A stretch of DNA of 64,000 nucleotides from an uncultured Clostridium sp. (GTDB taxonomy: Bacteria; Bacillota_I; Bacilli_A; RF39; UBA660), in NCBI GenBank assembly GCA_946414595.1, contig CAMKPE010000010.1:134-64133 (forward strand), written 5' to 3'. The stretch's first letter is position 1; each line of letters begins with the position of its first letter. The notes under the pieces were generated by a model that did no database searches, had not been told where the DNA came from, and was given only the letters and a program-made list of their open reading frames with translations. The position numbers were made by a program, and so were the translations under genes. Below are positions 2,364 to 18,916 of the stretch, piece after piece.

Positions 2364-3062
2364 CTATAATACATTTACACCTTTATTGTAAATATATCTA
2401 CCTAATATATATAGTAATATATCTGCAAATAATACTATTCCTATAGATATTATATTATTATCTAAATCATAAAAATATCCAATAGCAAGTCTTATTATTA
2501 AATATATTAATACTCCAAATACAAATGATAATAAGTCTTTACCTTTATCCATTTTATTTCCAAATATTAATCCAGTAATAAGTGACATAAATATTAAAGA
2601 AAATTGAACTGCTATAGTTATTATAAATATAAAGTTACTCTCTATTCCTGTATAGTTATCTAATAGTCTTGATACAAAAGAGAATACATTCTTTCCAGAA
2701 AATACATTTATAAAACATATTCCTAGTATTATCCATGATATTACTAAAGATAATATACTTACTAATACTTTAGAGTCATATAAATTACTTCTTTTTATTG
2801 GAAGAGTTAGAAATAAATAAGATTCTTCTCTAAATAGATTATTTCTTATTTTTAAATATACTTTAGAGAAAGGTAATATTATTATAAAAAACATTCCAAC
2901 AAGTGATAAGTCAGTACATACTTTCTTAGCTGCTACTATAGCATCATTTGAGTTATTTGCACACATAATAACTACATAAGAAAGTATTATACAAGATATA
3001 TATAATGGTATTAAATCTTTATTAACTGATTTAAAGTCATATTTAAATAGTTTTCTTAACAT
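2364..3062 (-). CDS. Multi-pass membrane protein, probably an ABC-2 type permease partner of the adjacent ATPase. 232 aa, about 6 TM helices.
   Basis: Highly hydrophobic with multiple TM-like segments. Overlaps the 3' end of ABC ATPase gene 3043..3738 (translational coupling). Confidence 0.5.
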   Translation of the reverse strand: MLRKLFKYDFKSVNKDLIPLYISCIILSYVVIMCANNSNDAIVAAKKVCTDLSLVGMFFIIILPFSKVYLKIRNNLFREESYLFLTLPIKRSNLYDSKVLVSILSLVISWIILGICFINVFSGKNVFSFVSRLLDNYTGIESNFIFIITIAVQFSLIFMSLITGLIFGNKMDKGKDLLSFVFGVLIYLIIRLAIGYFYDLDNNIISIGIVLFADILLYILGRYIYNKGVNVL

Positions 3063-3738
3063 TTGAATACCTCCTTAAAACACTTTTAATAGAAGTATTT
3101 AAATTTTTAACTTCTTTTTGTAATACAACTTTGCCTTTATCTAGAACTATTATTTCATTAAACACTTTTTCCATTTCATTTAATAAGTGAGTAGTAACAA
3201 TTAAAGTAGAATTCTTATCTATTTTATTTATTATTATATCTAAGATATATTCTCTTGTTATTGGATCTACTCCTGTTAATGGTTCATCTATTATGTATAA
3301 TGATGCATTTCTAGATATTACTAATAATAATTTTAATTTTTCTTTCATTCCCTTAGACATTTTATATATCTTTAAGTTTCTATCTATATCAAATTCATCT
3401 AAATATTTTATTGCTCTTTTATAGTTAAAGTTTTTATAAAAGTCATTATAGAATTCTATTATTTGTAATGCATTCATATTCTCATCTAGATATTCTTTAT
3501 CTGGTAAGTATGCTATATCATTTTTAGATTCTATTCCTAATTTCTTTCCTTTGAATAATATTTCTCCACTAGTAGGTGTTAATAAATCGTTTATTAGTTT
3601 TAATAAAGTAGTCTTCCCTGCTCCATTCATTCCTAATAAGCCAATTATTTTTCCTTTAGTTATTTTTAGATTTATATCATCAAGTACTACAAAAGATCCA
3701 TATTTCTTTGTTAGATGATTTATTTCTAATAAATCCAT
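3043..3738 (-). CDS. ABC transporter ATP-binding protein, 231 aa.
   Basis: Walker A GMNGAGKTT. ABC signature LSKGMKEKL. Walker B LYIIDEPLTGVD. Confidence 0.85.
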   Translation of the reverse strand: MDLLEINHLTKKYGSFVVLDDINLKITKGKIIGLLGMNGAGKTTLLKLINDLLTPTSGEILFKGKKLGIESKNDIAYLPDKEYLDENMNALQIIEFYNDFYKNFNYKRAIKYLDEFDIDRNLKIYKMSKGMKEKLKLLLVISRNASLYIIDEPLTGVDPITREYILDIIINKIDKNSTLIVTTHLLNEMEKVFNEIIVLDKGKVVLQKEVKNLNTSIKSVLRRYSNVKKTI

Positions 3739-3740
3739 AT

Positions 3741-4733
3741 TTATCTACTTCTTTCTTTTTCTACTCCATAGTTAACTGTATATTTATGTGGTCCTACATA
3801 TACTCTTGGTTCAAATACTGATAAGAACTCTGCATATTCTTTTGTTACTGTCTCTCTATCAATTAGTCCTTTTTCATATTCGTTTAATAGTTTATTCATA
3901 TATGTAGTTGCTAAAAACTCTTTAACTGAGTCAAGTGCTTTTTGCACTTTACCTCTGTTTCTAGTTACTATTTTGTTATCTTCTTTATGTATTGTATCTA
4001 AGTCTATTATAAATTGTTTTGCTTTCTCTGGGCTTGAGTATACTGCAAGACGATCAATTAAGCCTTGCAAGTCATTTGTAAAGTAACAGTTACGTAATTC
4101 TTCTTTACCTACTATTTTTTCAACACACTTGGCACATGTTATTTCTTTACTATATGTTTTAGATTTTCTTCCTTTGTTAAAGTATCTATCAGTAAGTAGT
4201 TGTGTATATCCTTCATTTATTCCATCTCCTATATCACTTTTTCTTAGTTTTTTATTTGGTGAATAAATAAAGTAATACTGACTTAATCCATCATAGTAAA
4301 TACCATCTTTGTATGACGCGCTTGCCATGTGAAATAGTTCATGAAACAAGTCATTCTTACCAATATATTCAATATAGTTTTTCAAAGCTGAATGATATGT
4401 ACTTCCATTAAATATACCAGATAGAGTTCTATTAACTCTTAATGTTGTTATATTTCTATAAAAGTTTGAAAGTATTTCTGGTGGAAAGTTTTCTACTAAT
4501 ACTCTACAAAAGAAATCTACATGTGCTTTTATTCTTGGGCTTTTTATGCCATGTTGTATTATTGTTGGTACAACTCGCTCTAAAGCTGGCGGTAAGGCTA
4601 CTAAATTGGCATTTTCATATTGCACATTTGGGTTAATTTGATATCTTTCATCACTACGATCAAACATACTGTCATATGCAGTTACATGAATTCCATCATA
4701 AACGCTTGATTCTTCAGTTGCTTCCAATGCCAT
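3741..4733 (-). CDS. Putative soluble gluzincin-type zinc metallopeptidase, 330 aa. Carries FHELFHMAS and GINEGYTQLLTDRYF. Paralog of 1206..2312.
   Basis: HExxH plus NEGY motifs. Shared blocks with 1206..2312. No signal peptide. Confidence 0.5.
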   Translation of the reverse strand: MALEATEESSVYDGIHVTAYDSMFDRSDERYQINPNVQYENANLVALPPALERVVPTIIQHGIKSPRIKAHVDFFCRVLVENFPPEILSNFYRNITTLRVNRTLSGIFNGSTYHSALKNYIEYIGKNDLFHELFHMASASYKDGIYYDGLSQYYFIYSPNKKLRKSDIGDGINEGYTQLLTDRYFNKGRKSKTYSKEITCAKCVEKIVGKEELRNCYFTNDLQGLIDRLAVYSSPEKAKQFIIDLDTIHKEDNKIVTRNRGKVQKALDSVKEFLATTYMNKLLNEYEKGLIDRETVTKEYAEFLSVFEPRVYVGPHKYTVNYGVEKERSR

Positions 4734-4747
4734 TTTAGCACCTCCTT

Positions 4748-5719
4748 TTATTTATTCTTTTTTGTATTGATCAAAAACAATTCAAATAATTGTCTATGTT
4801 TTTTAACAACAACTTGTAGAATGATTCCACATACATAAGTAAGTATTGAAATCATTAACATAAATCCAGAGAATATTAATGTTGGGAATCTAGGAACAAG
4901 TCCTGTATCAAAATATTCTATAAATACTGGTATTCCAAATATTAAAGATATTATTAAGAATATTGTTCCAACAAGACTAAAGAATATTGCTGGTTTGTAT
5001 TCTTTAAACAATCTAGCAATTGTTTTTAATACTTTAAATCCATCACTATAAGTGTTTAATTTAGATACACTTCCCTTTGGTCTATCTCTATACTCTACTG
5101 GTATTTCTTTTAATAAGAAATTCTTATCTAAAGCATGTATAGTCATTTCTGTTTCTATTTCAAATCCCTTAGATAATACTGGGAATGTTTTTACAAAGTC
5201 ATAACTAAATGCTCTATATCCAGTCATTATATCTCTTATCTTACTTTTAAATAACGTATTTATAAGTCCTCTTACTAGTCTATTTCCAAAGTTATGGAAA
5301 GGTCTTTTATTTTCTTTAAAATATGTTGAAGATAGTCTATCTCCAATAACCATATCTGCTTGTCCTTTTAATACATATTCACACATTTCTCTTGCGTTTT
5401 CTTTTGGATATGTATCATCACCATCAATCATTAAATAACAATCAGCATCTATATCTTTAAACATAGATCTAATAACATTCCCTTTTCCTTGTTTATATTC
5501 GTATTTAACAATTGCTCCGGCCTTTCTTGCTATCTCATCAGTACCGTCCTTAGAATTATTATCATAAACATATATATCTGCTTCAGGTAATACTTCTTTA
5601 TAATCTTTAACTACTTTTTCAATTGTTTTACTCTCGTTATAACAAGGTATTAAAACAGCTATCTTCTTCCCCTCAAAAACATTATCCTTTTTTGTTTCTT
5701 TTGCTTGTTTTGCTTTCAT
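4748..5719 (-). CDS. GT2 family glycosyltransferase, GtrB/DPM1-like polyprenyl-phosphate sugar transferase. Has C-terminal TM helices.
   Basis: IPCYNES...DGDDTYP GT-A motifs (DXD). C-terminal hydrophobic segments typical of GtrB. 323 aa. Confidence 0.8.
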   Translation of the reverse strand: MKAKQAKETKKDNVFEGKKIAVLIPCYNESKTIEKVVKDYKEVLPEADIYVYDNNSKDGTDEIARKAGAIVKYEYKQGKGNVIRSMFKDIDADCYLMIDGDDTYPKENAREMCEYVLKGQADMVIGDRLSSTYFKENKRPFHNFGNRLVRGLINTLFKSKIRDIMTGYRAFSYDFVKTFPVLSKGFEIETEMTIHALDKNFLLKEIPVEYRDRPKGSVSKLNTYSDGFKVLKTIARLFKEYKPAIFFSLVGTIFLIISLIFGIPVFIEYFDTGLVPRFPTLIFSGFMLMISILTYVCGIILQVVVKKHRQLFELFLINTKKNK

Positions 5720-6983
5720 TTATATTTTTCCTTTCTAAATCTATAATTGACACTATACTTGCAAGGATTGCAAATATAGTAATTATTAATATTCTATGAG
5801 TAAAGAATGCATGTATATAAGAATGATTTCCAGTAACAGTAAACCATGCAAATGGTATACATGCTATTAATAAATATGGAACTATCTTTAATAGTTTTTC
5901 TTTTGTTATTTTATCTTTATTAATTATAAATAAGATTATTGCAAATAATATGAATAACAATAGTATTACTACATATGGTTTATTCATAATTATATCTAAG
6001 TTCTTTCTTATTACACTAAAAGGTGTAATGTTAGTCTCTTGAGCTTCTAAAGATGTTCTTGTCTCTATTGCACCTAAAGCAGACTTAAACATGTTATCAA
6101 ATGTAAGTATTGTTCCAAATAAGAACTTACCTACCCACATTCCAATGTAACCAACACCCCACATAAAAGAGTTAGCAACAAGACTTTTAACATTTGTCCA
6201 TAAGTCTTTTTCTTCTTTTAATATGAAATAAACAATTAATGGGAATCCTAAAGTTACAAGTGGATAAGTTAAGAAATCCATATAACTAGTTATTATTCCT
6301 ACAATTAAGAAGTAATATATATAACTATTATTCAATTTCAATTTATCATCAAGAAGTAATAATGCAATTAAACTTATATTAGTTATATAAAAGATTGTTG
6401 AATACTGAAGTGACATCATCACTATTGATGGATTAACCATAAGTATTGATATTAAATATGGAATTATATATTTCTCTTTTTTCTTTTTAAATAATAATAT
6501 TGCTACAAGTGCTATTAATATAGGTTGTATTATTGTATTTAATAATCTTATATTGGAGTAATTAAAGAACATTAATACGGGTTTTAATACTACTAAATAA
6601 CCATGCCAATAACGATCATATGAAGACAAATGAATTTCTTCTTCATTACTAAATATATTAGAAAGAGCTTTAACTGCATCATCTTCATCAATTGAATATC
6701 TATATACATGCATTGCTTTATCAAGCACGTTTTCATTTCCATCATATATTGCATTAGCAAGCATTATTGAATCAGTATAGTTATCAAGCTTAGTGTTTTC
6801 AACACCTTCAATAACTTCTTTATATTTACCTTCTTGTTCTAATAATGAAACAGAAGATTCAACATGTCCTTTCATTCTTCCTGTTGGAAGTAAGTAAACT
6901 CCAAGTAGTAATATAATACCTATTCCTATACTACTTAAAAGAATTAATAAAGTTTTACAAATCTTCTTTTTCATAATACTCAC
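5682..6983 (-). CDS. Large polytopic membrane protein, 433 aa. Candidate GT-C type membrane glycosyltransferase partnering the GtrB-like gene.
   Basis: More than 10 predicted TM helices. 38-nt overlap with the downstream GtrB-like gene. Gene-order analogy to gtrB/gtrC. No specific motif recognised. Confidence 0.4.
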   Translation of the reverse strand: MSIMKKKICKTLLILLSSIGIGIILLLGVYLLPTGRMKGHVESSVSLLEQEGKYKEVIEGVENTKLDNYTDSIMLANAIYDGNENVLDKAMHVYRYSIDEDDAVKALSNIFSNEEEIHLSSYDRYWHGYLVVLKPVLMFFNYSNIRLLNTIIQPILIALVAILLFKKKKEKYIIPYLISILMVNPSIVMMSLQYSTIFYITNISLIALLLLDDKLKLNNSYIYYFLIVGIITSYMDFLTYPLVTLGFPLIVYFILKEEKDLWTNVKSLVANSFMWGVGYIGMWVGKFLFGTILTFDNMFKSALGAIETRTSLEAQETNITPFSVIRKNLDIIMNKPYVVILLLFILFAIILFIINKDKITKEKLLKIVPYLLIACIPFAWFTVTGNHSYIHAFFTHRILIITIFAILASIVSIIDLERKNINESKTSKRNKKG

Positions 6984-7026
6984 CTGTACTTATATTATAC
7001 TATATATTAGTATTATTTTATATCAT

Positions 7027-7051
7027 AAAAAAAGTACCTAAAGGTACTTTT
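7027..7051 (-). terminator. Rho-independent terminator after the AAA+ gene: aaagtacc-ttta-ggtacttt plus T-run on the minus strand.
   Basis: Perfect inverted repeat seen directly. Overlaps the stop codon. Confidence 0.5.
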
Positions 7052-8528
7052 ATTCTAATTCAAATTTTCTATGATCATCAACAGTTTTTCTTGTTAATAC
7101 TAGTCTTTTAAATGTGCTATTTGGATTTTCAAGTATTGCTTTCTCTGCTGGGTCTATTACTCTTCCAACAAAGTTATTTAAGTTTCTCATTCCTGTTGAT
7201 TCTTGTTCAAGTCTTTCAAATATTGCATCAACAAAATCATCAGTTGCTGTTAAGTCTATTCCAAATTGTTCTTTATATCTTTTTCTTTTATCAGCAAGTA
7301 TACTTGTTGGTTTACTTACTAATATTTCTCTTTTTGTATCTAAATCTAGACTATTATATATTAATAGTGTTTTTATTCTTGATATTTCTTCATCTGTGAA
7401 ATATCCTTTTTCTATTATTTTTCTTTTTAATTCTTCTGGTGTAAGTATTGCTGCTTTTCTTGTTTCTTGACCAAATCCTAAACCTTTTTCAGGTTCTAAT
7501 ATACGTTCAAAAACACCTAAACAAGCAATTGTTAATAAACATGTATCAAATGGTTCTTCCATTCCATCTAAATGGAATACTTCACGTCCATCTAAGAATG
7601 TTAATAGTCCATCTTTAACTCCATCTGCTGCAACAGAACCTTGATTATCTAATTTATCAAATTCATCTAGTAAGAAGATTCCTCTTTCTGCTCTTTCTTT
7701 ATTCTTTCCTGAATCTTTATATAAATCAAATAATAAGCTTTCTATTGTTTTTCCTCTAATACCAGTTCTTACTAATTTAGAAGAGTTATATTTTACAAAA
7801 GGCACCCCCATATATCTAGCAGCAATTTCAAATGTTTCTGTTTTACCAGTTCCAGATGGTCCAGCTACTAAAATAGATGAAACCATATCTCCTTTTCTTG
7901 CTATATAGTTCATATATAGTTTTTGAGCAATTGTTTCTATTTCTTCATCATGCCCTAATATATATTCTTTAATAGCATCTCTAATACCAGGATAAGTTAT
8001 TTCTTTACTTAATCCATCATGCTTTATATTAGTAACTTCATCTTTAGCTTCTTCAACATCAGGTTTAGCTTCTGGAATAATCTCAGTTAATACACCACTT
8101 ACTTCTTCTTTAGTAGAACACTTTGCAAGTTTTTCAAGTACTGCATCATTTATTACTACAGATGATACTCCTTTTTTAGTATCTAACTCTACTACTCTTA
8201 AATTGTTTTTATCAGTTGAATCAACATAAAGAATTCTTTCTTTATTATCTTCAAAGAATTTTTTAGCAAGTAAGTCTGTATCTTCATCATAATTATATTC
8301 AGTCTCTAAATCTTCTGTATCATGAACATTACTTATTACATATCTATGATATAAGTCCATTTTGTGATTTAATATTGGAATTAATCCTTCATCTGTTGAA
8401 AACATTGTTCTATCAGATAATCCACCTTCAACAGATACTGGAAACAATACATAATTAGTACCACTTAATTTAAAAACACGATATTTAATTCCATATTCAT
8501 AAGTCTTATTTGTAACCATAAACCCCAC
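7050..8528 (-). CDS. Orphan AAA+ ATPase with HslU/ClpX-like nucleotide-binding domain and about 210-aa unique N-terminal domain. 492 aa.
   Basis: Walker A ILVAGPSGTGKTE. ClpX/HslU-like spacing to FVKYNSSKLV and Walker B LLDEFDKL. Own RBS aggtgggg, flanked by terminators on both sides. Confidence 0.6.
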   Translation of the reverse strand: MGFMVTNKTYEYGIKYRVFKLSGTNYVLFPVSVEGGLSDRTMFSTDEGLIPILNHKMDLYHRYVISNVHDTEDLETEYNYDEDTDLLAKKFFEDNKERILYVDSTDKNNLRVVELDTKKGVSSVVINDAVLEKLAKCSTKEEVSGVLTEIIPEAKPDVEEAKDEVTNIKHDGLSKEITYPGIRDAIKEYILGHDEEIETIAQKLYMNYIARKGDMVSSILVAGPSGTGKTETFEIAARYMGVPFVKYNSSKLVRTGIRGKTIESLLFDLYKDSGKNKERAERGIFLLDEFDKLDNQGSVAADGVKDGLLTFLDGREVFHLDGMEEPFDTCLLTIACLGVFERILEPEKGLGFGQETRKAAILTPEELKRKIIEKGYFTDEEISRIKTLLIYNSLDLDTKREILVSKPTSILADKRKRYKEQFGIDLTATDDFVDAIFERLEQESTGMRNLNNFVGRVIDPAEKAILENPNSTFKRLVLTRKTVDDHRKFELE

Positions 8529-8554
8529 CTAGTGGTTTATTATATATTAATATT

Positions 8555-8582
8555 AAAAAAATTGCTATATAAAATAGCAATT
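8555..8582 (-). terminator. Rho-independent terminator after the CYTH gene: aattgctat-tttata-tagcaatt plus T-run on the minus strand.
   Basis: Inverted repeat plus A-run on plus strand, seen directly. Confidence 0.5.
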
Positions 8583-9117
8583 ATTCAAATCTTAATTCTT
8601 TTATATCATTTACATTAATATTATATATTTCTTCATATATACTTTGACAATTTAAATTAGTAATCTTATCTTTATCTATTTCTAGAAGTTCTTCAACTTC
8701 TTTAATAGACTTGATATTTTTTCCTTCAAACTCTACATAAGTAGGTATTAATGGCCAAGAATCTATATCTATTTCAACATCATTAAGAATATATCTTATT
8801 CTTTTATTTTCCTGATATGCTCTTTTTTTGTATCCTAGTATATTTAACATTTCGTTAGTATCTTCAAAACTAGATACTTCTATTTCTAATTCTTTAGTTC
8901 CATCAATGCTATTTTCTTCTACATTCTTATATGTAAGTGTAATACTTTTACCTGTGTCTCTTAATCTAATCCATTCATTTTCTCTTACTGGATTAAAGTC
9001 ATATACATATCTTTTTTGAAACCAATCCCCAACAAAAGTGGCATTTAATTTTTTTAGTTTCTTAATTAGCTTCTCTTTATCTACTTCTAATACTCTTTCT
9101 TCTATCTCTTTATGCAT
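8581..9117 (-). CDS. CYTH-domain protein (class IV adenylate cyclase / triphosphatase-like fold).
   Basis: N-terminal HKEIEERVLEV resembles the CYTH EIERKF motif. About 175 aa, acidic and beta-rich. Start moved to the internal Met (MHKEIE), which abuts the apt stop. Confidence 0.6.
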   Translation of the reverse strand: MHKEIEERVLEVDKEKLIKKLKKLNATFVGDWFQKRYVYDFNPVRENEWIRLRDTGKSITLTYKNVEENSIDGTKELEIEVSSFEDTNEMLNILGYKKRAYQENKRIRYILNDVEIDIDSWPLIPTYVEFEGKNIKSIKEVEELLEIDKDKITNLNCQSIYEEIYNINVNDIKELRFE

Positions 9118-9118
9118 A

Positions 9119-9703
9119 TTACTCTTCATTTATGTCTATTAAAGAGAATAATTCTTTATTATCATTTAACTCTTTAATATTCATAACAACTCCTTCCCCT
9201 ACTACTTTTCCTCCTAAGGATTCTATAGCTTCTTTGATTACTTTTAAAGTATTACCAGTAGCATATATATCATCAAGCAAATAAAACTTTTTATTTTTAT
9301 AACTAGTATTAACAAGTTTAGGAAGCTCTAAAGTATCTTTTCCATATTCTTTTACATAATCAAAACCTAACTCTACTGTACTAGGAGCAAGCTTTCCTTT
9401 CTTTCTTACTGGAATAAGTCCAACATTAAGTTTATATGCTACCATTGATCCAAATAAGAATCCTCTTGCTTCAGGAGCAACAATATAATCGATATCTTTA
9501 TCTTTTAATTCTAAATAAAACTTTTCAGTTATTTCATTTAAAGTATCTTTATTAAGAATTAAAGGATTAATATCCACAAATTCTATTCCTTTAATAGGAA
9601 AATCTTTCTCTGTTCTAATATTTAAGTCTCTTTTCAAGTCATTCTTAAGAATAATCATAATATCACCCAATTTGATTATAACAAGAAAAAAAGAGTTATG
9701 CAC
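9119..9703 (-). CDS. apt: Adenine phosphoribosyltransferase. Start may be the internal Met at 9658.
   Basis: VAPEARGFLFGSMVAYKLNVGLIPVRKKGKL and the PRPP-binding loop YLLDDIYATGNT align with B. subtilis Apt. Confidence 0.75.
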   Translation of the reverse strand: MHNSFFLVIIKLGDIMIILKNDLKRDLNIRTEKDFPIKGIEFVDINPLILNKDTLNEITEKFYLELKDKDIDYIVAPEARGFLFGSMVAYKLNVGLIPVRKKGKLAPSTVELGFDYVKEYGKDTLELPKLVNTSYKNKKFYLLDDIYATGNTLKVIKEAIESLGGKVVGEGVVMNIKELNDNKELFSLIDINEE

Positions 9704-10070
9704 TCTTTTTATATTCTCTAATTATCCAAATCATTAATAAGGAAACTATATAATCTTTTTCAGTATCTGTTAATTCTCTTCCTTTAGGTATGTTATGCCA
9801 CTTTTCTAAACAAGATCTACAACAGCAACCACAAGCATGCATAGCAATGAAAACAGGATGTCCTTTCATAGGTGTTTGTTTACCATCATTTACCGGATTA
9901 CTAGGTACTAGTTTTTCATTAACAAAATCTATTGCATGTGACTTAACTATATCTAAACCTTTTTCATCTATATAAGAAATCATATACTTTCTAAGATGAA
10001 AACTACTTCTAAACTTAGATTTTGATAAAGATTCTAATTTCTTATTAATACTTATAACTTTATCATTCAT
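9696..10070 (-). CDS. DUF4186-like small protein with a conserved Cys cluster HACGCCCRSCLEKWHNIP.
   Basis: About 124 aa. KFRSSFHL...NDGKQTPMKGHPVFIAMHACGCCCRSCLEKWH matches my recollection of the DUF4186 family. Confidence 0.5.
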   Translation of the reverse strand: MNDKVISINKKLESLSKSKFRSSFHLRKYMISYIDEKGLDIVKSHAIDFVNEKLVPSNPVNDGKQTPMKGHPVFIAMHACGCCCRSCLEKWHNIPKGRELTDTEKDYIVSLLMIWIIREYKKSA

Positions 10071-11056
10071 TAGAACTTATAATCTAATTTAACTGCTGTT
10101 ACAATGTATAACGCATTATCCCAGTGGTGAGAACAAGTTTGCAATACAAGTATTTCTGATTCAGCATTTATACTTATATTTCTTGATTGAACAGGACTAT
10201 TAGTAATTGCATTAAAGTGATCAATAAAGTCTTGTCCAGTTAAATCAACTTTCATATGTTCACCATTAGTCTCTGATATTTCTTTAATTGATTTTATCTC
10301 ATATAAAGCTTTTCCACCTTCATATTGGAATATTATATATGGATGTGAATCAAAGAATTCTTTATCAAGAAACTTCTCAAGTTTTAAGAATGCTACTTTT
10401 ATATTTGTATCTCTTGTATTATGTCCATATATATTAATTTGTTTACTAGTAGGTTTAACTCTATAATCTAAAAATTCGGTTCCTCTTATATCATATTCTT
10501 TATCAACTGAATGTGTTAAGTAATAAGAATTATCATTTGATTGTGCTACTAATACGTTAAATAATTCAGGTATTTCAAGTCTTCCAACTATTTGATTATT
10601 GTTATGTTTCTTTCTTTCTGCTGCTATATCTATATCTTCAGCAAGTTTAAACTTAAAGCCATTAACAGTAGCATCTTCAGTTTCAGTACTTAACTCAGAT
10701 GGTGTTGGTTTATAAATGTCTGGTTCCGGTGGTTCTGGTTTAGGGCTAAAGTAATCTACTGCAAATACAATTGCTGATGCAACTAATACAAGCGAAAATA
10801 TTATATACATAATTATTTTAGTCTTGTTAGTTTTTTTCTTTTTCTTGTTAATAGGAGGCATATATCCCCCACCCATATTTGGATTAGGATTATAACCATT
10901 CATCCCTGGATTATAATTATTATTCATTCCCATATTATTACCACTAGTATTTAAAGGGAATGTATTATGACAATAAGTACAATTAGCCTGTTGACTATAA
11001 ATGTCAGTAACTACTTTTGCACCACATTGAGGACATACTACTTCCATATATCTCAT
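10070..11056 (-). CDS. Class B sortase-like transpeptidase fused to an N-terminal cytoplasmic zinc ribbon, an Asn/Gly/Pro-rich linker, a poly-Lys stretch and one TM helix.
   Basis: SrtB-like blocks YYLTHSVDKEYDIRGTEFLDYR, INIYGHNTRD (catalytic His) and ILVLQTCSHH (TLxTC Cys). N-terminus CPQCG...CTYCHN zinc ribbon. No Arg after the TLxTC block. Start chosen at MRYMEVV, which has an AGGAG RBS. Confidence 0.65.
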   Translation of the reverse strand: MRYMEVVCPQCGAKVVTDIYSQQANCTYCHNTFPLNTSGNNMGMNNNYNPGMNGYNPNPNMGGGYMPPINKKKKKTNKTKIIMYIIFSLVLVASAIVFAVDYFSPKPEPPEPDIYKPTPSELSTETEDATVNGFKFKLAEDIDIAAERKKHNNNQIVGRLEIPELFNVLVAQSNDNSYYLTHSVDKEYDIRGTEFLDYRVKPTSKQINIYGHNTRDTNIKVAFLKLEKFLDKEFFDSHPYIIFQYEGGKALYEIKSIKEISETNGEHMKVDLTGQDFIDHFNAITNSPVQSRNISINAESEILVLQTCSHHWDNALYIVTAVKLDYKF

Positions 11057-11103
11057 ATAATCATCTCCTATTATATATTTTAATTGTATCATAATTTATA
11101 AAA

Positions 11104-11132
11104 AGAAAAAATCCTTATTTCTAAGGATTTTA
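11104..11132. terminator. Hairpin terminator aaaaatcctta-tttc-taaggattttt. Sequence identical to the one at 14568..14597.
   Basis: Perfect inverted repeat flanked by A-run and T-run. Lies just downstream of the stop of giant gene 11168..14485. Confidence 0.55.
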
Positions 11133-11167
11133 CTTTTATTTACTATTATTAAACTAGATTAGATATT

Positions 11168-14100
11168 TTAGAAAAACATTGAAGTATTAGAATTTTCTTC
11201 TTTATTTGTTTCTTCTTTTACTTCTTTTTTCTTTTCGCCTTTTTCTTCATCTTCTTCTTTGTCTTCTTTATCACCAACTAATCCAGTTAATCCTAATCCT
11301 GCTGCACCTGCTGCTAATCCTGCTAGAGCACCAAGGGCTGCTGAACTTTGTCTAGTTTCCCCATTTATATTATACATAGCATCAAGTCCAGTATGTGGTC
11401 CATTTCCATCATAACCTCCATATCCTCCATATCCACTATCAGATGAATAAGAATCTGTAAACCATGGATTTGGATTATATGTTCTTGGTTCTGTTGAAAT
11501 TGTTGGAGTTCCAGAACGTCCTTCTGTACCTTGTTCTATTCCACTTTCTGTTTGTCTCTCAGAATGACTTTCAGTATGACTTTCAGTTCCTGGTTCTCCA
11601 GTTCCTCTTTCAGTGCTTCTTTCAGTACTTCTTTCAGATCTTCTCTCAGTACTTCCTTCAGTACTTCCTTCAGTACTTACTTCAGTACTTGTTTCTCCAG
11701 TTTTTCTCTCTGTACTCTTTTCACTACTTTGTTCAGATGTTCTTTCAACAGACTTAACTTCAAAATGATCAGGAATTGAAGAATATTCTTCTGGGAATAT
11801 TTCTCTTGCATAACCTATTGGAACGATTTCTCTTTGATCCCAAATAGTTACATCTGTACCTATCTTCTTTCCAGTTCTATCGAAGCACGCTACTCTTATT
11901 GTTCCTGTTAATGGATCAAATTCTCCAGTTACTGCATATATGTATCCATGTGCATCATCGTGAAGAATAACATCTCCTACTTTATAATCAATTACTACAC
12001 TGTGTCCACTTTCATCGACGCCATAATATCCATGCAGTGGCGTTATAACCGGCATCTGCGAGTAATCTTCAAATAATTTAATTACACTATCGTGACTCGA
12101 CGCATCACCATGAAGCAATAACGAATCTTTACTTTCAATCCATGAAGATCTATCCTCTAAATTAACTCCACGCCTATTTTTGAATCCATCTCCTACGAAG
12201 AATGATTCAAATGTATTTAGAGTTTGTTCAAAACTTACTATTTTATAATATTTATCAAGCATTTCTAAAAAGTCATCATTACATTTTTCTTGTTGAGGAA
12301 TAATATAATTGTTTATAAGATGTTCTTTTGCTTTTTCCAAATTATTTTTTTCTTTTAGTTTTGTCTCTACAGTAATATTATCTCTATTCCAGTCTTGAAC
12401 TCTTAAAGTATAATCACTGTCAGTTTCATCATCTTTTTGTACTGGCTTACTACCCACTTTTTCTTTTGCTTGATTATATGCTTTTGTTGCGTCAGATAAT
12501 AATCTTTCTAATTCACGCAAGTTACATCCCCATGAAGCTGCTCCAGCCGATGTTAAATAAGTTACGTCACTAGGGCAACCATCTACTAGAGAATAATCTT
12601 TATCTCCAATCCCCTGTCCTTTTAAATGGAATAATCTATCTTCTGAAGCCTTTAATGTAATAAGACAATCACATAACTCATCCAAAGATTCACATGCAGG
12701 TTTTAATGCGCTTTCTATATTTCCCATTGTTACTTCGAACTTACCTATTATAGTTTCAATGGCTTCTTTTTCGCTTTTACTTGCGCTACCTTCCCATCTT
12801 TGAAATTTTTCATGTGCAAGTTGAACTTGTTTCTTAAGTTCCTCAACTTCTTCCATTAAGTCATTTACAGTATAACCCCATTTTTTTTCATCAGGGAGTC
12901 CTAATTCTTTATATTTTTGTTCATAAATTGTACCATAAAAGTATTTATCTGGATATTGTTCTCCAAATTCATATCCATTTGCCTTCAAGCTATCAACCAT
13001 TAACTTCAAATCAGATACATTATACTGCCCAGTTGCTGCATATGTTGCTATATAGTCAATTGGACTAAACTTACTTGAACTAGTTCTTCCTAAAGGATTT
13101 CCAGTAACTTGCATTATTTCAAGTAGTCTTTCATTATTTGCTAATGTTGTTCTTTGAGCATTAGCACCCCCACTAGTTATTCCTGCATCGTATGATCCTG
13201 CTTCCTTTGCAGTACCATCCTTGTTCATATTTCCAAACGCACCCCATCCAGCATTATCACTACCTGTCGTTTGGGTTACGTGTGTTTCATGCATATATTC
13301 ATCATGCACATCAGGTCTATCTACTGATCCTACACCATTTTCTTTATTTATTGCTTCTGTTGCCCATGGCATTACAGAATCAGCACTTATTCTATCTCTT
13401 TCTTCACTACCTGAAACTTTATCTGGATCTAATCTATGTGTTGCTAGCAATTTTGCTTTTTCTTCTTCTGGTAATGAACTAAAATTATATTCTCTTTCTA
13501 AATAAGCTTCTAACCCTTCTTGTTTATCAAAATATCTAATTGGTTGATTTTGACCATTTGAATCTTTTTCATATTTTAACACATACGATCCATGCTCTTC
13601 AGATGCAGCTTCATTATTAGACAAAGCAACATATCCATCTGTTTTAATATGGTAATTGTCATGTCCTACTGCACGAATATTCGTTGCTATTGCTTCTGAT
13701 CTTCCAACAGTATCTGTTAATTGCATTATTGGATCATCCGGATTATCAGAATGTAATTCTGTTATAGTTGCACCTGTGATAGGATTTTTATGATCAGTAT
13801 CAGTAATAGCAAATAATGCATAATTGCCATCTTCATCTGGTAATATTTGTCCTTCTAATGGTTCCCCACCATCAACATAATATGTAACACGTCCCAAAAA
13901 AGTACGACCATCGCTAAATTTATAAGCACCTGAATCTCTCTCCCAAGAAGAACCATTAAATCTAATTCCTGGATAACCATGAGCCGAATATACCGTAGCA
14001 GAATCGTCAAATCTTGCAGTTCCTTTGACTTCAGTAAAAGCCGTTATATGTGCCTTTGAAGGGTCAATAGGACCAGTAGACTCACCAATTGGTTGCAACT

Positions 14101-14485
14101 CATAAGAGTTTTGTCCCTCTTTTTTTACAATAATACCTTCATGTGTAACTCCATCGCCCAATTGATATTCTACTCTTCCAGTATAATGCTCTACGCCATC
14201 ATCATTCCAACACTCATCAAAGTTAGCCCAAGTAGCACGAGTATATAATACTGGAAAAGCATTTCCAGATTGAATCCCAAAATTAGCTCCTGTTCCTCTT
14301 GAATCATCAATAATATCATATACATGCGTATCAGTACTATTTGCAGCAGTTGGATCAAAGCTCATCCTTGTTGATTCATCTCCAACCATTGCTCCAGGAA
14401 CTGGTCCTGAACCTGCCATTGGATCTGTTACTATCATTTCAGTATCTTCAGTTGTTGTAGTTATGGTTTCATCACTCATAACCAC
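11168..14485 (-). CDS. Giant paralog A, 1105 aa. Large secreted or surface protein of unknown function.
   Basis: Shares long conserved blocks with 14601..18245. Central WxG-like helix QRWEGSASKSEKEAIETIIGKFE. STE/TEGS tandem-repeat linker. C-terminus ...NGPHTGLDAMYNINGETRQSSAALGALAGLAAGAAGLGLTGLVGDKEDKEEDEE. Own promoter, strong RBS aggaggtgtggtt, own terminator. Confidence 0.7.
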   Translation of the reverse strand: MVMSDETITTTTEDTEMIVTDPMAGSGPVPGAMVGDESTRMSFDPTAANSTDTHVYDIIDDSRGTGANFGIQSGNAFPVLYTRATWANFDECWNDDGVEHYTGRVEYQLGDGVTHEGIIVKKEGQNSYELQPIGESTGPIDPSKAHITAFTEVKGTARFDDSATVYSAHGYPGIRFNGSSWERDSGAYKFSDGRTFLGRVTYYVDGGEPLEGQILPDEDGNYALFAITDTDHKNPITGATITELHSDNPDDPIMQLTDTVGRSEAIATNIRAVGHDNYHIKTDGYVALSNNEAASEEHGSYVLKYEKDSNGQNQPIRYFDKQEGLEAYLEREYNFSSLPEEEKAKLLATHRLDPDKVSGSEERDRISADSVMPWATEAINKENGVGSVDRPDVHDEYMHETHVTQTTGSDNAGWGAFGNMNKDGTAKEAGSYDAGITSGGANAQRTTLANNERLLEIMQVTGNPLGRTSSSKFSPIDYIATYAATGQYNVSDLKLMVDSLKANGYEFGEQYPDKYFYGTIYEQKYKELGLPDEKKWGYTVNDLMEEVEELKKQVQLAHEKFQRWEGSASKSEKEAIETIIGKFEVTMGNIESALKPACESLDELCDCLITLKASEDRLFHLKGQGIGDKDYSLVDGCPSDVTYLTSAGAASWGCNLRELERLLSDATKAYNQAKEKVGSKPVQKDDETDSDYTLRVQDWNRDNITVETKLKEKNNLEKAKEHLINNYIIPQQEKCNDDFLEMLDKYYKIVSFEQTLNTFESFFVGDGFKNRRGVNLEDRSSWIESKDSLLLHGDASSHDSVIKLFEDYSQMPVITPLHGYYGVDESGHSVVIDYKVGDVILHDDAHGYIYAVTGEFDPLTGTIRVACFDRTGKKIGTDVTIWDQREIVPIGYAREIFPEEYSSIPDHFEVKSVERTSEQSSEKSTERKTGETSTEVSTEGSTEGSTERRSERSTERSTERGTGEPGTESHTESHSERQTESGIEQGTEGRSGTPTISTEPRTYNPNPWFTDSYSSDSGYGGYGGYDGNGPHTGLDAMYNINGETRQSSAALGALAGLAAGAAGLGLTGLVGDKEDKEEDEEKGEKKKEVKEETNKEENSNTSMFF
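11560..11700 (-). repeat. In-frame 15-nt tandem repeats (ttcagtacttcc-like units) encoding the S/T/E/G-rich linker (STEGSTEGSTER...) of giant paralog A.
   Basis: Directly visible near-perfect tandem repeats of cagtacttccttcag units. Confidence 0.6.
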
Positions 14486-14567
14486 ACCTCCTAACTATTA
14501 ATTATTATAGTATTAACATATTATTACTATTTTCTATATCATATACATTGTATCATAATTTAGCAAA

Positions 14568-14597
14568 AGAAAAAATCCTTATTTCTAAGGATTTTTA
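14568..14597. terminator. Hairpin terminator identical to 11104..11132, downstream of giant paralog B.
   Basis: Same aaaaaatcctta-tttc-taaggattttt sequence. A-run and T-run on opposite sides. Confidence 0.55.
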
Positions 14598-14600
14598 TCT

Positions 14601-17600
14601 TTATTGATTATTTCCGAATGTTGTTTTATCAACATTTTGAGGTTTATCTTCAACTTCGATTGGGTGGTTTAGAGAAAACATTGGAGTTTCATCCTTTACT
14701 TCTTCTTTTTTCTCTTCTTTACCTTCCTCTTCGTCTTCTTCTTTATCCTCTTTATTGTCAACTAATCCAGTTAATCCTAAACCAGCTGCTCCAACCGCTA
14801 ATCCAGCAAGTGCTCCTAAACCAGCAGTGCTTTGTTTAGTTTCACCATTTGTATTATACATAGCATCAAGTCCAGTATGTGGTCCACCACCCCAGCTACC
14901 TGTTTCAGGTTCTGTGAATATTGGATGTGGAGCATATGTCTTATGCTCTGTTGGTTGTTCTGTTGGCCTATCTGTTGGTTGTTCTGTTGGTGCATCAGTT
15001 GGTCTATCTGTTGGTTGCTCTGAAGGTTTTTCAGTTGGTTTTTCAGTTGGTTTTTCTGTACCATGTGAAGTTGGTGCTTCAGTACCATGACCATGAGTTT
15101 TTCTCTCTGTCTTTCTTTCTGTATTCTTTTCAGGTTCAGAAACTGTCTCTGGTTCAGTCTCAAAGAAGTTATCTGGAATTGATGAATATTCTTCATCAAA
15201 GTCTCTAACATAACGAATTGGAACGATTTCTCTTTGATCCCAAATAGTTACGTCAGAACCAATCTTTCTACCTGTCTTATCGAAACATGCAATTCTTATT
15301 GTACCAGTTAATGGATCGAATTCTCCAGTAACTGCATAATAATATCCATGTGCATCATCGTGAATTAATACGTCACCAATCTTATATGGAACTATTGTAC
15401 TATGACCGTCTTCCCCAGCAGCATAGTAACCAGAAATTGGTGTAATAACCGGCATGCTCGAGTAATCTTCGAACAGCTTGATAATACTGTCGTGGGTCGG
15501 GTCGTTGTCGTCCAGATGGGTGAGCATCGAGTCTTTGCTTGAAATCCAAGAGCTTCTGTCTTGTAATGTAACTCCACGCTTGTTCTGGAATCCAGAACCA
15601 ACGAAGAATGATTCAAATGTATTAAGTGTTTGTTCAAAGTTAGTAATCTTATGATATAGTTCAATAACTGACATAAGTACACCATCACAAACAGTTGCTT
15701 GAGCTTCAATTAAAGCATCTACTTGTGTTTGTGCTGCCTGATACATGTGAACTTCTTTCAATTTATTTTCAGCTTCAGTTTTCCTAGATTGCCACTGCGA
15801 ATGTTGAGTATTATAACTTCTTAAACTTGCCTGATAAGTAGAATCTGGTTCAGTTGCTCCTTGAGTTGGTCTTATAGGTTCAGGACCAACTAGGTTAGAT
15901 AATCTTTGATAATCTTGTGAAGCATTATTTACGGCTTCTACTAATTCACGTTGATTCTTATTAACTGAAGCAGTTTCTCCATCGTATGATACTGTAATAG
16001 CACCATCAGGTAATCCATTACTTGGTGAAGTAGCTCCACCATCTCCTACAGAATATCCTTTAATAGCATATAACTTAGTTTCTTCTTTCTTCAAGTTTTC
16101 AAGTTCTGTACATAATTCTGTTAAAGCTTCACAAGCTGGTAATAATGATTCTCTAATGTTACCCATTGTAACTTCAAATTTACCAATGATAGTTTCAATA
16201 GCTTCTTTTTCACTATTACTTGCAGTTCCTTTCCATGAAAGGAATTTATCGTGAGCTGCTTTAGCATATTGTGCAAGTTCTTCAACTTCCGCTGCTAAAT
16301 CTTCAGCAGTATATCCCCATTGTGGTTCTCCTGGTAATCCTAATTGCTTATATTTTTGTTCATATGTTGTACCAAAGAAGTAACGTGCAGGGTGTGCTTC
16401 AAATTGAACACCATTTTGCTCTAATGCATCAACCATCAATTGTAAGTCATGTGCATTATATTGACCAGTTGCTGCATATGTAGCTATATAATCAAGTTTA
16501 CTAAATTTACTTGTATCTGTATTTCCTAAAGGGTTTCCAGTAGTACTTAGTATCTCTCCTAATCTACTATTATTATATAATGTTACTCTTGTAGCATTTG
16601 TTCCAGTAGTAACTCCTGGAGTAGATCCATTTGCTTTACCAGTTTCGGCATCCATATTACCAAATGCTCCCCAACCAGCATCATCACTACCTGTTGTTTG
16701 AGTAACGTGTGTTTCATGCATGTATTCATCATGCATATCAGGTCTATCTACTGATCCAACACCATTTTCTTTAGCAATTGCTTGTGTAGACCATGGCATT
16801 ACTGAATCAACGTCCATTTGACCATTTGGATGTGCATCTACTTTAGTTGGATCAACTTTTAAAGAATTCTTAACTGCCTCTTGTTCTTCTGGGCTCATGC
16901 TCTCTAAATCGTATCCAGCAAGATATGCGTCTAAGTCAGCTTGACTTTGGAAATATTTAACTGTATGAGTTTGTCCTGATGCATCAGTTTCTGTTAATGC
17001 AACATATTTTCCATGTGTACCAGCAGTTTCATTATTAGATAATGCTCTATAACCATCAGTTTTAATATGATAATCATCATGTCCAACTCCAGTTACATCA
17101 GAAACTTGTACTTGTGACTGATCTATTACATTTCCTTGAGCATCTTTTAATACTGTTATTGCATTATCTGCATTTTCATTATGTAAAACTGTTACTGTTG
17201 CCCCATCTACTGGGTTAGCTTGTGCAGTATCAGTTGCATCATATAACTTATATTCTCCAGTAGCAGGATCTTTTACGATAATACCATCGTGTGTTACTGT
17301 TGTAGTTACACCATCTTGTGTAACAGTTGTTGTATAAGTAACTTTTCCTTCGAATGCTGCTCCATCCTTAGTACCAGATGCAGTCCAGTTTCTACCATCG
17401 AATGTTACTCCACTACCAAGTTCAACATCCATGTCGTAAACAACTTTACCTTCACGACCTGTATATGCAGTAATTTTAGCTCCTGTTACTGTAGCACCAC
17501 TTGCATCTTGTAATTCGTAAGTTCCAGTTGGAGTCTTTACGATTTGACCCTCGTGTTCCCCACCATTAGAATCTGTATATTTAACAGGTCCTACATATTT

Positions 17601-18245: not shown

Positions 18246-18262
18246 ATTGTAGGTCCCCCTTT

Positions 18263-18595
18263 CTAGCTATTAACATCTAGATTTTCAGCAAACTCTTCAA
18301 CGTTCTTGTTGATTTCTTCATTTACTAATCTATAGTCTTCTTTTGTTTTATTTAAAAATCTAATATAAATATCTAATGAATTTTCGATAGGATCATAATT
18401 TCCGTTAAGGATCTTATACTTTTCATACATGCTTCTTTGAGCTTGTCCTGTCCAAGTATCTGTCGCATTAACTTTTTCAGCATTTTGTTTTTGATTTGCA
18501 AAAACATCTTTCAACTTCATATATGAATTTGTTAATTCTGTAATTGTTTCTTCAAATTCACTAAAGTTGTTGATCTTCAAGTTCTGATTCGACAT
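18263..18595 (-). CDS. WXG100-like small helical protein, 110 aa (ATDTWTGQAQRSMYEKY). Candidate EsxB/Lap-type helper.
   Basis: Central W-x-G motif in a helical, acidic protein of about 100 aa. Strong RBS gaaggagg. 35-nt overlap with the upstream WXG gene. Confidence 0.55.
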   Translation of the reverse strand: MSNQNLKINNFSEFEETITELTNSYMKLKDVFANQKQNAEKVNATDTWTGQAQRSMYEKYKILNGNYDPIENSLDIYIRFLNKTKEDYRLVNEEINKNVEEFAENLDVNS

Positions 18596-18899
18596 AATTG
18601 ATAGCCTCCTTCTTTAACTCATTTCCACCTTCATCATCTTTTTCATCATAAAGGTTATTTGTTTCATTAACTGTATTAGAGATTTCTCTCATTGCTTGAG
18701 GAAGCTTTTTCATTTTCATTAAGTAGTTGTAGAAGTTGTTGCAGAATGTTTCTGCATCTTCTCCTTCCCAGTTTTCTCTTAACTTTTCAATGTTTGCAAG
18801 CATCTTCTCGATTTCTTCATCGAAATCAACACCGTCTTTGTCAATGGCATCTCTAACGTTTCCTAATTCTTCAGGATTAACTTTTAATACTCCGTCCAT
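18561..18899 (-). CDS. WXG100 family protein, EsxA-like. 112 aa.
   Basis: LKVNPEELGNVRDAID...LRENWEGEDAETF aligns with the S. aureus EsxA MSPEEIRAKS...ANWEGQAFSRF WXG core. RBS aggtga. Confidence 0.65.
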   Translation of the reverse strand: MDGVLKVNPEELGNVRDAIDKDGVDFDEEIEKMLANIEKLRENWEGEDAETFCNNFYNYLMKMKKLPQAMREISNTVNETNNLYDEKDDEGGNELKKEAINYVESELEDQQL

Positions 18900-18916
18900 A
18901 CATTATCACCTATCCT

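Follow-up and report, generated by a model that had tools for sequence, protein, structure and literature searches.

The locus and its sortase

The subject of this report is a sortase gene and its surroundings in a 64,000-nucleotide stretch of DNA from an uncultured Clostridium sp. (GenBank assembly GCA_946414595.1, contig CAMKPE010000010.1, positions 134 to 64,133 of the forward strand), which we call the window. The window derives from an uncultured Bacilli genome, has a low GC content (~27%) and includes spoVA, sigma-factor and scpAB genes. All genes around the sortase lie on the minus strand, and in order of transcription they encode P372, the WXG100-like proteins WXGb and WXGa, the giant proteins BIG2 and BIG1, the sortase, a DUF4186 protein, an adenine phosphoribosyltransferase (apt), a CYTH-domain protein and a ClpX-like AAA+ protein. 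A preliminary description of this sequence had centered on the sortase and the genes that follow it, and it overlooked the conserved partners that precede it, namely the two WXG100 genes and the giant PxTG proteins without signal peptide.

The sortase gene is composed as follows:

10070-11056, minus strand: sortase gene, 328 amino acids plus stop
10955-11056, minus strand: zinc ribbon, residues 1-34, with C8/C11 and C26/C29 (CPQCG...CTYCH); four short beta strands in the AlphaFold2 model, predicted local distance difference test (pLDDT) >90
10847-10954, minus strand: low-complexity linker rich in Asn, Gly, Pro and Met, residues 35-70; pLDDT ~40-46, disordered
10748-10846, minus strand: polybasic KKKKKTNKTK (K71-K75) and transmembrane helix, residues 71-103; helix at 78-103 in the AlphaFold2 model
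10073-10645, minus strand: class-B sortase (SrtB) catalytic domain, residues 138-328, matched to SrtB structures with Foldseek
10421-10423, minus strand: codon of catalytic His212 (GHN)
10133-10141, minus strand: Q306-T307-C308 (LQTC), the catalytic Cys and a clade-specific Gln two residues ahead of it (Cys-2)
10109-10111, minus strand: codon of Leu316, at the position of the canonical beta8 catalytic Arg as aligned with R217 of C. difficile SrtB

The reading frame is open as far as an ATG at 11092 (10070-11092, 340 amino acids from this first ATG). We placed the start at the ATG at 11056 because a ribosome-binding site, AGGAG, lies 7 nt ahead of it, which gives a product of 328 amino acids; the database protein P0001, also 328 amino acids long, matches the window sortase at 100% identity. 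The parts named in the preliminary description (zinc ribbon, Asn/Gly/Pro linker, KKKKK, transmembrane helix, SrtB domain, GHN and LQTC) are all found in the sequence where it had put them. With a basic patch on the N-terminal flank of the single transmembrane helix, the positive-inside rule would place the N-terminus and the ribbon on the cytoplasmic side of the membrane and the catalytic domain on the outer side.

The AlphaFold2 model of the whole protein (pLDDT 86.7) leaves little doubt about the fold. When it was compared with the PDB using Foldseek, the top 19 matches were all SrtB, the best being C. perfringens SrtB (5b23_A, TM-score 0.88, E value 1e-15), and other sortase classes appeared only at E values of 2e-6 or weaker. 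The enzyme is nevertheless a variant of class B rather than a plain member, because the catalytic arginine is absent and the curated profile thresholds are missed.

Loss of the catalytic arginine across a clade

Sortases are textbook His-Cys-Arg enzymes that serve widely as tools for protein ligation and are also of interest as targets of anti-virulence drugs. Reviews place the arginine in the active site of nearly every characterized sortase class that they cover, and in C. difficile SrtB, which has (S/P)PxTG specificity, Arg217 hydrogen-bonds the P1 Thr and Tyr167 contacts the P4 Pro (PMC5118464). As the preliminary description had pointed out, the window sortase lacks this residue: a phmmer alignment sets C. 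difficile R217 opposite Leu316 (TCTYEFDDA-R-MVI vs TCSHHWDNA-L-YIV), and the last 20 residues of the protein (SHHWDNALYIVTAVKLDYKF) contain no arginine. The SrtB enzymes of B. anthracis (LSTC...EAGR-LVVH) and S. aureus (LSTC...TTKR-IVVV) keep the arginine at that position.

This absence extends well beyond the window. Among 162 GTDB matches examined, 80 were kept as species loci (numbered with the prefix L), from which 81 sortases were recovered, and a second set was formed by the 120 closest database homologs of the window sortase. All 162 matches originate from metagenome-derived gut or rumen genomes, with no isolates among them, and are labeled Bacilli, Erysipelotrichaceae, Tenericutes/Mollicutes, "Clostridium sp. 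CAG" or Candidatus Coprovivens. The arginine position holds Leu, Phe or Tyr in 120/120 closest homologs and in 80 of the 81 locus sortases, the exception being a second, ordinary SrtB in L049. These Arg-less sortases form a large, previously uncharacterized clade that is so far confined to uncultured gut and rumen Bacilli. Our literature search for Arg-less or LQTC sortases found no paper, an absence that is no proof of novelty.

Other active-site positions have changed together with the arginine, as seen when the 80 Arg-less sortases are set against four canonical SrtB (those of C. difficile, B. anthracis and S. aureus, and one from the loci). At Cys-2, Gln is found in 80/80 Arg-less enzymes and Ser in 4/4 canonical ones (LQTC vs LSTC), and the residue after the catalytic His is Asn in 80/80, compared with N, R, H or S in the canonical four. 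The position of C. difficile Tyr167 is His in 73/80 Arg-less members and Tyr in canonical SrtB, and that of H280 is His in 75/80, where the canonical enzymes have Y, F, F and W. The catalytic His and Cys are themselves invariant (120/120 and 80/80), and besides His212, Cys308, GHN and xQTC about 25 more positions are invariant or nearly so across the 80 species-level genomes.

The preliminary description had held that its account would fail if a conserved arginine turned up elsewhere in the alignment and the operon neighbors proved not to be conserved across relatives. The latter is the case, as described below, and we found no alternative arginine that is conserved across the Arg-less family. 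R199, in a DYR motif, was rejected as a substitute since canonical SrtB has it too; R215 is kept in clade A only (the sortase clade that includes the window), and R159 and R292 vary across the wider family. Loss of the arginine together with gain of the glutamine looks more like a fixed, compensated change than like decay, and perhaps Gln306 or Asn213 supplies the hydrogen bonds that normally come from the arginine. If so, the enzyme may well be catalytically competent without it.

Giant putative substrates and their WXG100 partners

Upstream of the sortase lies a cassette of five genes:

18917-20035, minus strand: P372, first gene of the cassette, with a conserved helical N-terminal domain
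18561-18899, minus strand: WXGb, WXG100 protein of 112 amino acids, WEG at residue 44; PF06013 37 bits (cut-off 27.3), TIGR03930 48.8 bits (cut-off 44.85)
18263-18595, minus strand: WXGa, WXG100-like protein of 110 amino acids, WTG at residue 48; PF06013 19.8 bits and TIGR03930 27 bits, both below threshold
14601-18245, minus strand: BIG2, paralogous putative substrate of 1214 amino acids, without signal peptide, with an internal WKGTAS hairpin
14871-14882, minus strand: PHTG of BIG2, residues 1122-1125; followed by LD, a spacer of ~17 residues, a Gly/Ala transmembrane helix (14760-14819) and an acidic tail
11168-14485, minus strand: BIG1, putative substrate of 1105 amino acids, without signal peptide, with an internal WEGSAS hairpin
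11387-11398, minus strand: PHTG of BIG1, residues 1030-1033; followed by LD, a 17-residue spacer, a Gly/Ala transmembrane helix (11276-11335) and an acidic tail
Candidate sortase substrate peptide with PHTG signal: ...YDGNGPHTGLDAMY...

A neighbor-joining tree of the sortases separates clade A from a second clade, B, which comprises L029 to L076. All clade-A loci have a P372-like gene, WXGb, WXGa, one or two giant proteins and the sortase, and this order is kept across differing genomic surroundings (for example in L005, L009-L013, L083 and L085); L083 has two tandem cassettes with a YkuD gene downstream. The passenger regions of the BIG proteins vary. What they have in common is a PD.HD..MH.THVTQ motif, very long helices that come after a helix-WxG-helix hairpin, a conserved beta domain and a stereotyped C-terminus, in which a Pro/Thr-rich stalk leads to P-x-T-G-[LI]-[DG], a spacer of 13-22 residues, a helix of the form LGALAGLAxGAAGLGL and an acidic, Lys-containing tail of 20-75 residues. 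PxTG[LI] occurs in 20/20 clade-A BIG proteins, where shuffled sequences lead one to expect 3.4, and it stands at a fixed distance from the transmembrane helix. The AlphaFold2 model of the BIG2 core contains the helix-WKG-helix hairpin and the long helices.

An exhaustive HMMER search with the BIG2 core returned 53 family representatives among 1.84 billion proteins. Of the 37 representatives that are full-length, roughly 28 have the anchor described above, and a hydrophobic signal at the N-terminus is missing from all of them. The N-termini of BIG1, BIG2, the family representatives and all comparable neighbors of clade-A and clade-B sortases are of low hydrophobicity, which points to the absence of a Sec signal peptide. 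A PDB sequence search with BIG2 gave chance matches only, and Pfam searches at E values up to 5 with BIG fragments, the P372 N-terminal domain and a helper protein of clade B gave nothing meaningful.

Several further properties of the cassette deserve mention. The PD.HD..MH.THVTQ motif is invariant in all aligned BIG proteins (at about residues 436-450 of BIG1, window ~13135-13180, and 520-535 of BIG2); it has no profile match and might bind metal or take part in catalysis. An additional P-x-T-G in BIG2, PETG (14898-14909, minus strand), lies nine residues ahead of the conserved PHTG and is absent from BIG1. In the window P372 ends in a Gly/Ala transmembrane helix (19046-19105) and an acidic tail like those of the BIG proteins, without PxTG; this anchor is found only in the window and L001, and homologs elsewhere are anchorless and end in Ser/Asn/Thr-rich repeats. 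The BIG genes (11168-18245) have a GC content of 34-37% against ~27% for the window, which fits either selection for Gly, Ala, Pro and Thr or a foreign origin. Four relatives of the BIG core (P0279, P0292, P0293 and P0295) keep the WxG helical core and have other C-terminal domains in place of the beta domain and anchor, a modularity that resembles polymorphic effectors; in P0295 the WxG hairpin lies at the very N-terminus.

Two types of candidate substrate and a probable link to type VII secretion

The candidate substrates encoded next to Arg-less sortases fall into two types. Type 1 proteins are classical, with a signal peptide, an [I/F/P]PxTG motif, a spacer of 4-10 residues, a Leu/Ile-rich transmembrane helix and a KKK-type tail. 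Type 2 proteins have no signal peptide, a PxT[G/M/N] motif, a spacer of 11-22 residues, a Gly/Ala-rich transmembrane helix and an acidic tail. Type 1 proteins adjoin the sortase in at least 16 Arg-less loci, and their presence argues that the Arg-less enzymes would be working sortases.

Type 2 maps to two monophyletic sortase clades, A and B. In clade B the motif EYxPIPxT[GMN] occurs in 9/9 substrates (1.25 expected). The type 2 clades are also the only ones with WXG100-like genes, a 117-amino-acid helper, DUF4176 and the P372 N-terminal domain, which are found in 0 of ~50 other loci. In L076, two WXG genes, the helper, a type 2 substrate, DUF4176 (PF13780, 82 bits), the sortase, EssC and a YukD-like gene follow one another. 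The EssC of L076, which adjoins the clade-B sortase, scores 947.5 bits against TIGR03928 (cut-off 778.4), and a second EssC, in L029, scores 802 bits and lies 6.7 kilobases (kb) from the sortase. Matches to FtsK-type motifs in L050, L064 and L071 were considered as EssC and discarded as false positives, these proteins being FtsK by their size and N-terminal transmembrane segments. Homology between BIG2 and the clade-B substrates outside the anchor was likewise rejected, since the BLAST links vanished with low-complexity filtering off.

Positions 777-10560 of L076 hold a compact locus that resembles a type VIIb secretion system (T7SSb), with EssC and the YukD-like protein as its only recognizable machinery. 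The genes for RecU and a class A penicillin-binding protein come immediately after it. Neither EsaA nor EssB was seen inside the locus, which may represent a minimal type VII secretion system (T7SS) of reduced genomes. Directly upstream of a clade-A sortase, positions 2920-9945 of L010 encode a WXG100-like protein, a 103-amino-acid partner, two proteins of ~388 amino acids whose N-termini are helical and whose C-termini are of the alpha/beta-hydrolase type (esterase/lipase-like), and a 969-amino-acid protein, a set that looks like a T7SS effector island.

A proposed pathway and its alternatives

On balance we favor, with moderate confidence, the view that the window encodes a dedicated, Arg-independent SrtB variant whose probable substrates are the two giant upstream proteins, exported by a type VII route, cleaved, and then either anchored or released. 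Type VIIb export seems the most likely route for the BIG proteins for three reasons: a Sec signal peptide is missing, a helix-WxG-helix hairpin lies in their interior, and two WXG100 genes stand ahead of their own. In the pathway that we propose, a T7SSb would export the giant proteins together with their WXG100 partners, and the C-terminal Gly/Ala helix would act as a stop-transfer anchor that leaves the acidic, Lys-containing tail in the cytoplasm. The neighboring sortase would then cut PHTG between Thr and Gly and hand the BIG protein to a peptidoglycan precursor, with the Pro/Thr stalk spanning the wall. In its fullest form, this is a coupling of type VII secretion to sortase anchoring, in which an Arg-independent class-B enzyme, relying on a Cys-His pair aided by the Gln at Cys-2, links giant WXG100-partnered proteins without Sec signals to the wall by means of a PxTG motif, long spacer, Gly/Ala helix and acidic tail. 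We put this fuller form forward as plausible but tentative.

Several observations weigh against the proposed pathway. The sortase scores below curated cut-offs (TIGR03064 84 bits vs 153.75, PF04203 25.0 vs 26.6), and since the arginine is catalytic in known sortase classes, its loss could have cost the enzyme its activity. Neither the 64-kb window nor the 10 kb around each clade-A sortase yielded EssC or another T7SS core gene. The BIG tail after the transmembrane helix is net acidic (for instance +8/-14), unlike canonical sorting signals, and, in contrast to LXG effectors, the WxG hairpin lies within the chain at a distance of 200-670 residues from the N-terminus. The BIG proteins have no LXG or WXG100 match in Pfam, and Foldseek matched the model of the BIG2 core to generic helical bundles only (best E value 0.05); because this fold search was not significant, we do not claim that the BIG proteins belong to the LXG family. 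Finally, all sequences come from metagenome-assembled genomes, and the argument is one from genomics alone.

Two alternatives concern what the enzyme does. It might be a pseudo-sortase, dead without its arginine and serving as a binding, retention or chaperone factor for PxTG proteins, or having no role. Reviews list the arginine in the triad, studied sortases need it for efficient catalysis, an R217A mutant of C. difficile SrtB has been made and its structure solved (PDB 6kyd), and the low profile scores point the same way. A changed mechanism fits better than decay, however, because His212, Cys308 and the many other sites are held invariant, the replacement of the arginine goes together with a fixed change from Ser to Gln next to the Cys, and canonical PxTG substrates still lie adjacent in many lineages; we therefore regard a dead enzyme as quite improbable. 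Rather less hard to credit, if still unlikely in our judgment, is a release protease that cuts PxTG, transfers the product to water and so frees type-VII-exported proteins from their C-terminal membrane helix. The absence of the arginine and the unusual signal, with its long spacer, Gly/Ala helix and acidic tail, do differ from what is seen in wall anchoring, and known T7SSb effectors are released rather than anchored (PMC13492133). Yet the long Pro/Thr-rich stalk ahead of PxTG is typical of wall-spanning regions, and sister Arg-less sortases pair with classical wall-anchor signals.

The other two alternatives concern the company that the enzyme keeps. The giant proteins may not be type VII cargo at all, being exported by another route or tail-anchored with their bulk in the cytoplasm, in which case the WXG100 genes would be unrelated and the PxTG motif would go unseen by the sortase. 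The lack of essC near all clade-A loci and of any LXG or WXG100 profile or fold match in the BIG proteins speaks for this, and the acidic tail could in principle face outward. Against it, the order WXG-WXG-BIG-sortase is invariant in more than 19 loci in different genomic contexts, PxTG is strictly conserved at its fixed distance from the membrane helix, the tail is richer in Lys than the upstream flank, which favors a tail-in topology, and clade B shows the same design inside an EssC locus. We consider this reading very improbable. The preliminary description had proposed an unusual mix of a surface transpeptidase with nucleotide-metabolism genes, and one could extend this to a functional unit of sortase, DUF4186, apt and CYTH that ties surface transpeptidation to nucleotide metabolism or signaling, possibly via the zinc ribbon. 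The four genes are co-directional and tightly packed with no strong terminator ahead of 7030-7051, the 1-nt overlap of sortase and DUF4186 recurs in L001 and L085, and DUF4186 lies downstream in 4/4 loci with a zinc ribbon. But in the 16 clade-A loci whose sequence reaches far enough downstream, the sortase is followed by DUF4186 in 9, by apt in 7-8 and by CYTH in 3, and none of the three genes is present in the ~65 other, more distant Arg-less loci. In the same sublineage both flanks, an upstream FAD oxidoreductase and a far-downstream ABC pair and GT2 gene, are also conserved; DUF4186 stands as well behind sortases without a zinc ribbon; and its relatives at 75% identity adjoin priA or ligA/pcrA, with neither sortase nor apt nearby. 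With the neighbors limited to the nearest relatives in this way, a functional unit is to our minds highly improbable.

Relation to known systems

The closest well-studied counterpart of the window enzyme is C. difficile SrtB (CD2718; PDB 5gyj, 4ux7), which is its best PDB sequence match (E value 2e-18) and shares its fold and N-terminal membrane anchor; the (S/P)PxTG motif that C. difficile SrtB recognizes also resembles PHTG, PDTG, PPKTG and IPxTG, which occur next to the sortases of the Arg-less clade. The differences lie in the active site, where LSTC and Arg217 of C. difficile SrtB correspond to LQTC and Leu, Phe or Tyr, and where Tyr167 gives way to His in most Arg-less members, and also in the absence of a zinc ribbon from the C. 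difficile enzyme, whose substrates have signal peptides and basic tails. The SrtB enzymes of S. aureus and B. anthracis (NPQTN and NPKTG; PDB 1ng5, 4lfd, 1rz2) resemble the Arg-less ones in their class B fold, which includes additional helices, in their GH(x) and xTC motifs and in having their gene next to that of a dedicated substrate, but they have the canonical Arg and a Ser at Cys-2, and their cargo consists of Sec-exported heme-uptake proteins.

The cassette itself recalls T7SSb effector cassettes such as those of the LXG toxins (S. intermedius Tel, S. aureus EsaD/TspA), in which small WXG100 or helper genes likewise immediately precede the gene of a large protein that lacks a signal peptide; in clade B, DUF4176 and EssC/YukD lie alongside as well. 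TspA is reportedly a T7 substrate that is able to stay membrane-associated. The BIG proteins differ in having no PF04740 LXG match, an internal WxG hairpin (in clade A) and a C-terminus made of a stalk and sortase signal instead of a toxin with its immunity partner. That signal resembles the canonical LPXTG type in its Pro-x-Thr-Gly, hydrophobic helix, charged C-terminal tail and preceding Pro/Thr-rich stalk. It departs from it in the length of the spacer (13-22 residues here vs 4-10), in a Gly/Ala-rich helix (LGALAGLAxGAAGLGL) encoded in a 27% GC genome, in a net acidic tail of 20-75 residues in place of a short basic one, and in the lack of an N-terminal signal peptide.

To our knowledge, all sortase substrates described so far are Sec-exported, and we know of no T7SSb cargo that is other than released or membrane-associated. 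Our literature search found no T7SS substrate with a sortase signal and no link between T7SS cargo and sortases, which is no proof of novelty; in a 2026 review of T7SSb, sortase appears only in the reference list (PMC13492133).

Two things in particular call for attention, the clade-wide switch from Arg to a hydrophobic residue and from Ser to Gln, and the link that seems to exist between sortase processing and type VII cargo. If the proposed reading is true, the window enzyme would be the first known example of a sortase that functions without the arginine of the triad, and a species-rich clade that combines a hydrophobic residue in its place with a fixed Gln beside the Cys would offer a test of what the arginine really does. 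Such a clade could also be a source of enzymes whose chemistry or specificity differs from that of known sortases. A T7SS-adapted sorting signal, again if true, would be the first route to wall anchoring for T7SS cargo, would connect two major surface pathways of Gram-positive bacteria, and would explain how abundant uncultured gut and rumen Bacilli display proteins of ~1000 residues.

An optional zinc ribbon

The preliminary description had asked whether the fusion of zinc ribbon and sortase is conserved. It is found in 19/120 closest homologs, all in clade A, and is absent from the rest, so that its presence is facultative. In the AlphaFold2 model its two CxxC knuckles (C8-x2-C11 and C26-x2-C29) sit on beta hairpins and form a predicted zinc site; no profile matched above threshold, the best being zf-LITAF-like at 16.5 bits vs 23.8. 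Sortases with and without the ribbon occupy the same type of cassette. The front end of the sortase, with its ribbon, linker, basic patch and transmembrane helix, recurs in the window on a second extracytoplasmic cysteine peptidase, a clostripain-family protease of 735 amino acids (29475-31682, minus strand) in which two zinc ribbons at the N-terminus (PF13240, PF12773) are followed by an N/Y/Q-rich linker, a basic patch, a transmembrane segment and a Peptidase_C11 domain (175 bits). Because of this recurrence, its occurrence in a minority of homologs and the shared cassette, we conclude that the ribbon is an optional, reusable cytoplasmic module. The Zn_Ribbon_1 and DZR modules (Pfam) of Firmicute membrane proteins have the same layout of CxxC...CxxC, low-complexity linker, basic patch and transmembrane helix, and we came across no published sortase with a module of this kind. 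As a speculation, the ribbon and polybasic patch might make contact with the acidic tails or with the secretion machine.

Downstream genes and other features of the window

The genes and signals that follow the cassette are these:

11109-11130, minus strand: weak A/T-rich hairpin and T-run between BIG1 and the sortase, read from the sequence; possible leaky terminator
9696-10070, minus strand: DUF4186 gene, PF13811 158.9 bits; bystander
9119-9703, minus strand: adenine phosphoribosyltransferase (apt), NF002636 151 bits vs cut-off 125, probable start ATG 9658; bystander
8581-9129, minus strand: CYTH-domain protein, PF01928 34.1 bits vs 23.2, TIGR00318 52 bits, below 57.95; bystander
7050-8528, minus strand: ClpX-like AAA+ gene
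7030-7051, minus strand: strong terminator-like hairpin from a terminator scan, at the end of the co-directional run after the AAA+ gene

The hairpin at 11109-11130 has fewer than three GC pairs and went unreported by the terminator scan. Given this hairpin and T-run, the sortase may have its own transcript start besides read-through from BIG1. The identities of DUF4186, apt and CYTH given in the preliminary description are borne out by the profile scores, as is its 1-nt coupling by the sequence, in which the stop codon of the sortase (TAA) overlaps the ATG of DUF4186 by one base at 10070. As the spacing is tight, the three genes are probably co-transcribed with the sortase. They are passengers all the same: conserved flanks on both sides within the same sublineage indicate plain vertical synteny, and the link between sortase and nucleotide metabolism is a synteny artefact, which is of use to annotation. 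The DUF4186 family is abundant, with at least 7982 matches at E values of 1e-10 or below among scored candidates; a homolog at 85% identity, in L085, has the same arrangement. A defense-system reading of the downstream genes was rejected after PADLOC gave generic weak matches only. No riboswitch was found ahead of apt, Rfam returning tRNA-Leu alone from positions 6500-22000.

The AAA+ protein (7050-8528) is a divergent ClpX-like protein of 492 amino acids (TIGR00382 67 bits vs cut-off 371) that lacks the ClpX zinc finger and has a unique N-terminal domain of ~180 residues; its gene trails the cluster in the window, L001, L003, L004, L015 and L081. Beyond the 3' end of the cluster, positions 2364-6983 (minus strand) encode a GT2 glycosyltransferase with C-terminal transmembrane helices, a polytopic membrane protein of 433 amino acids, a 330-amino-acid protein and an ABC ATPase/permease pair. 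This gene set is kept in close relatives and is also found in L085 (9852-14375), and it may be an extracytoplasmic glycosylation set for Thr/Pro-rich stalks. On the other side, ahead of the cassette, a perfect sigma-70 consensus (TTGACA-17-TATAAT, 12/12) lies at 21523-21551 (minus strand), just downstream of tRNA-Leu(CAA) at 21585-21670 (minus strand) and upstream of the gene for a 322-amino-acid protein (20525-21493) that precedes the cassette and has a homolog in L001 only.

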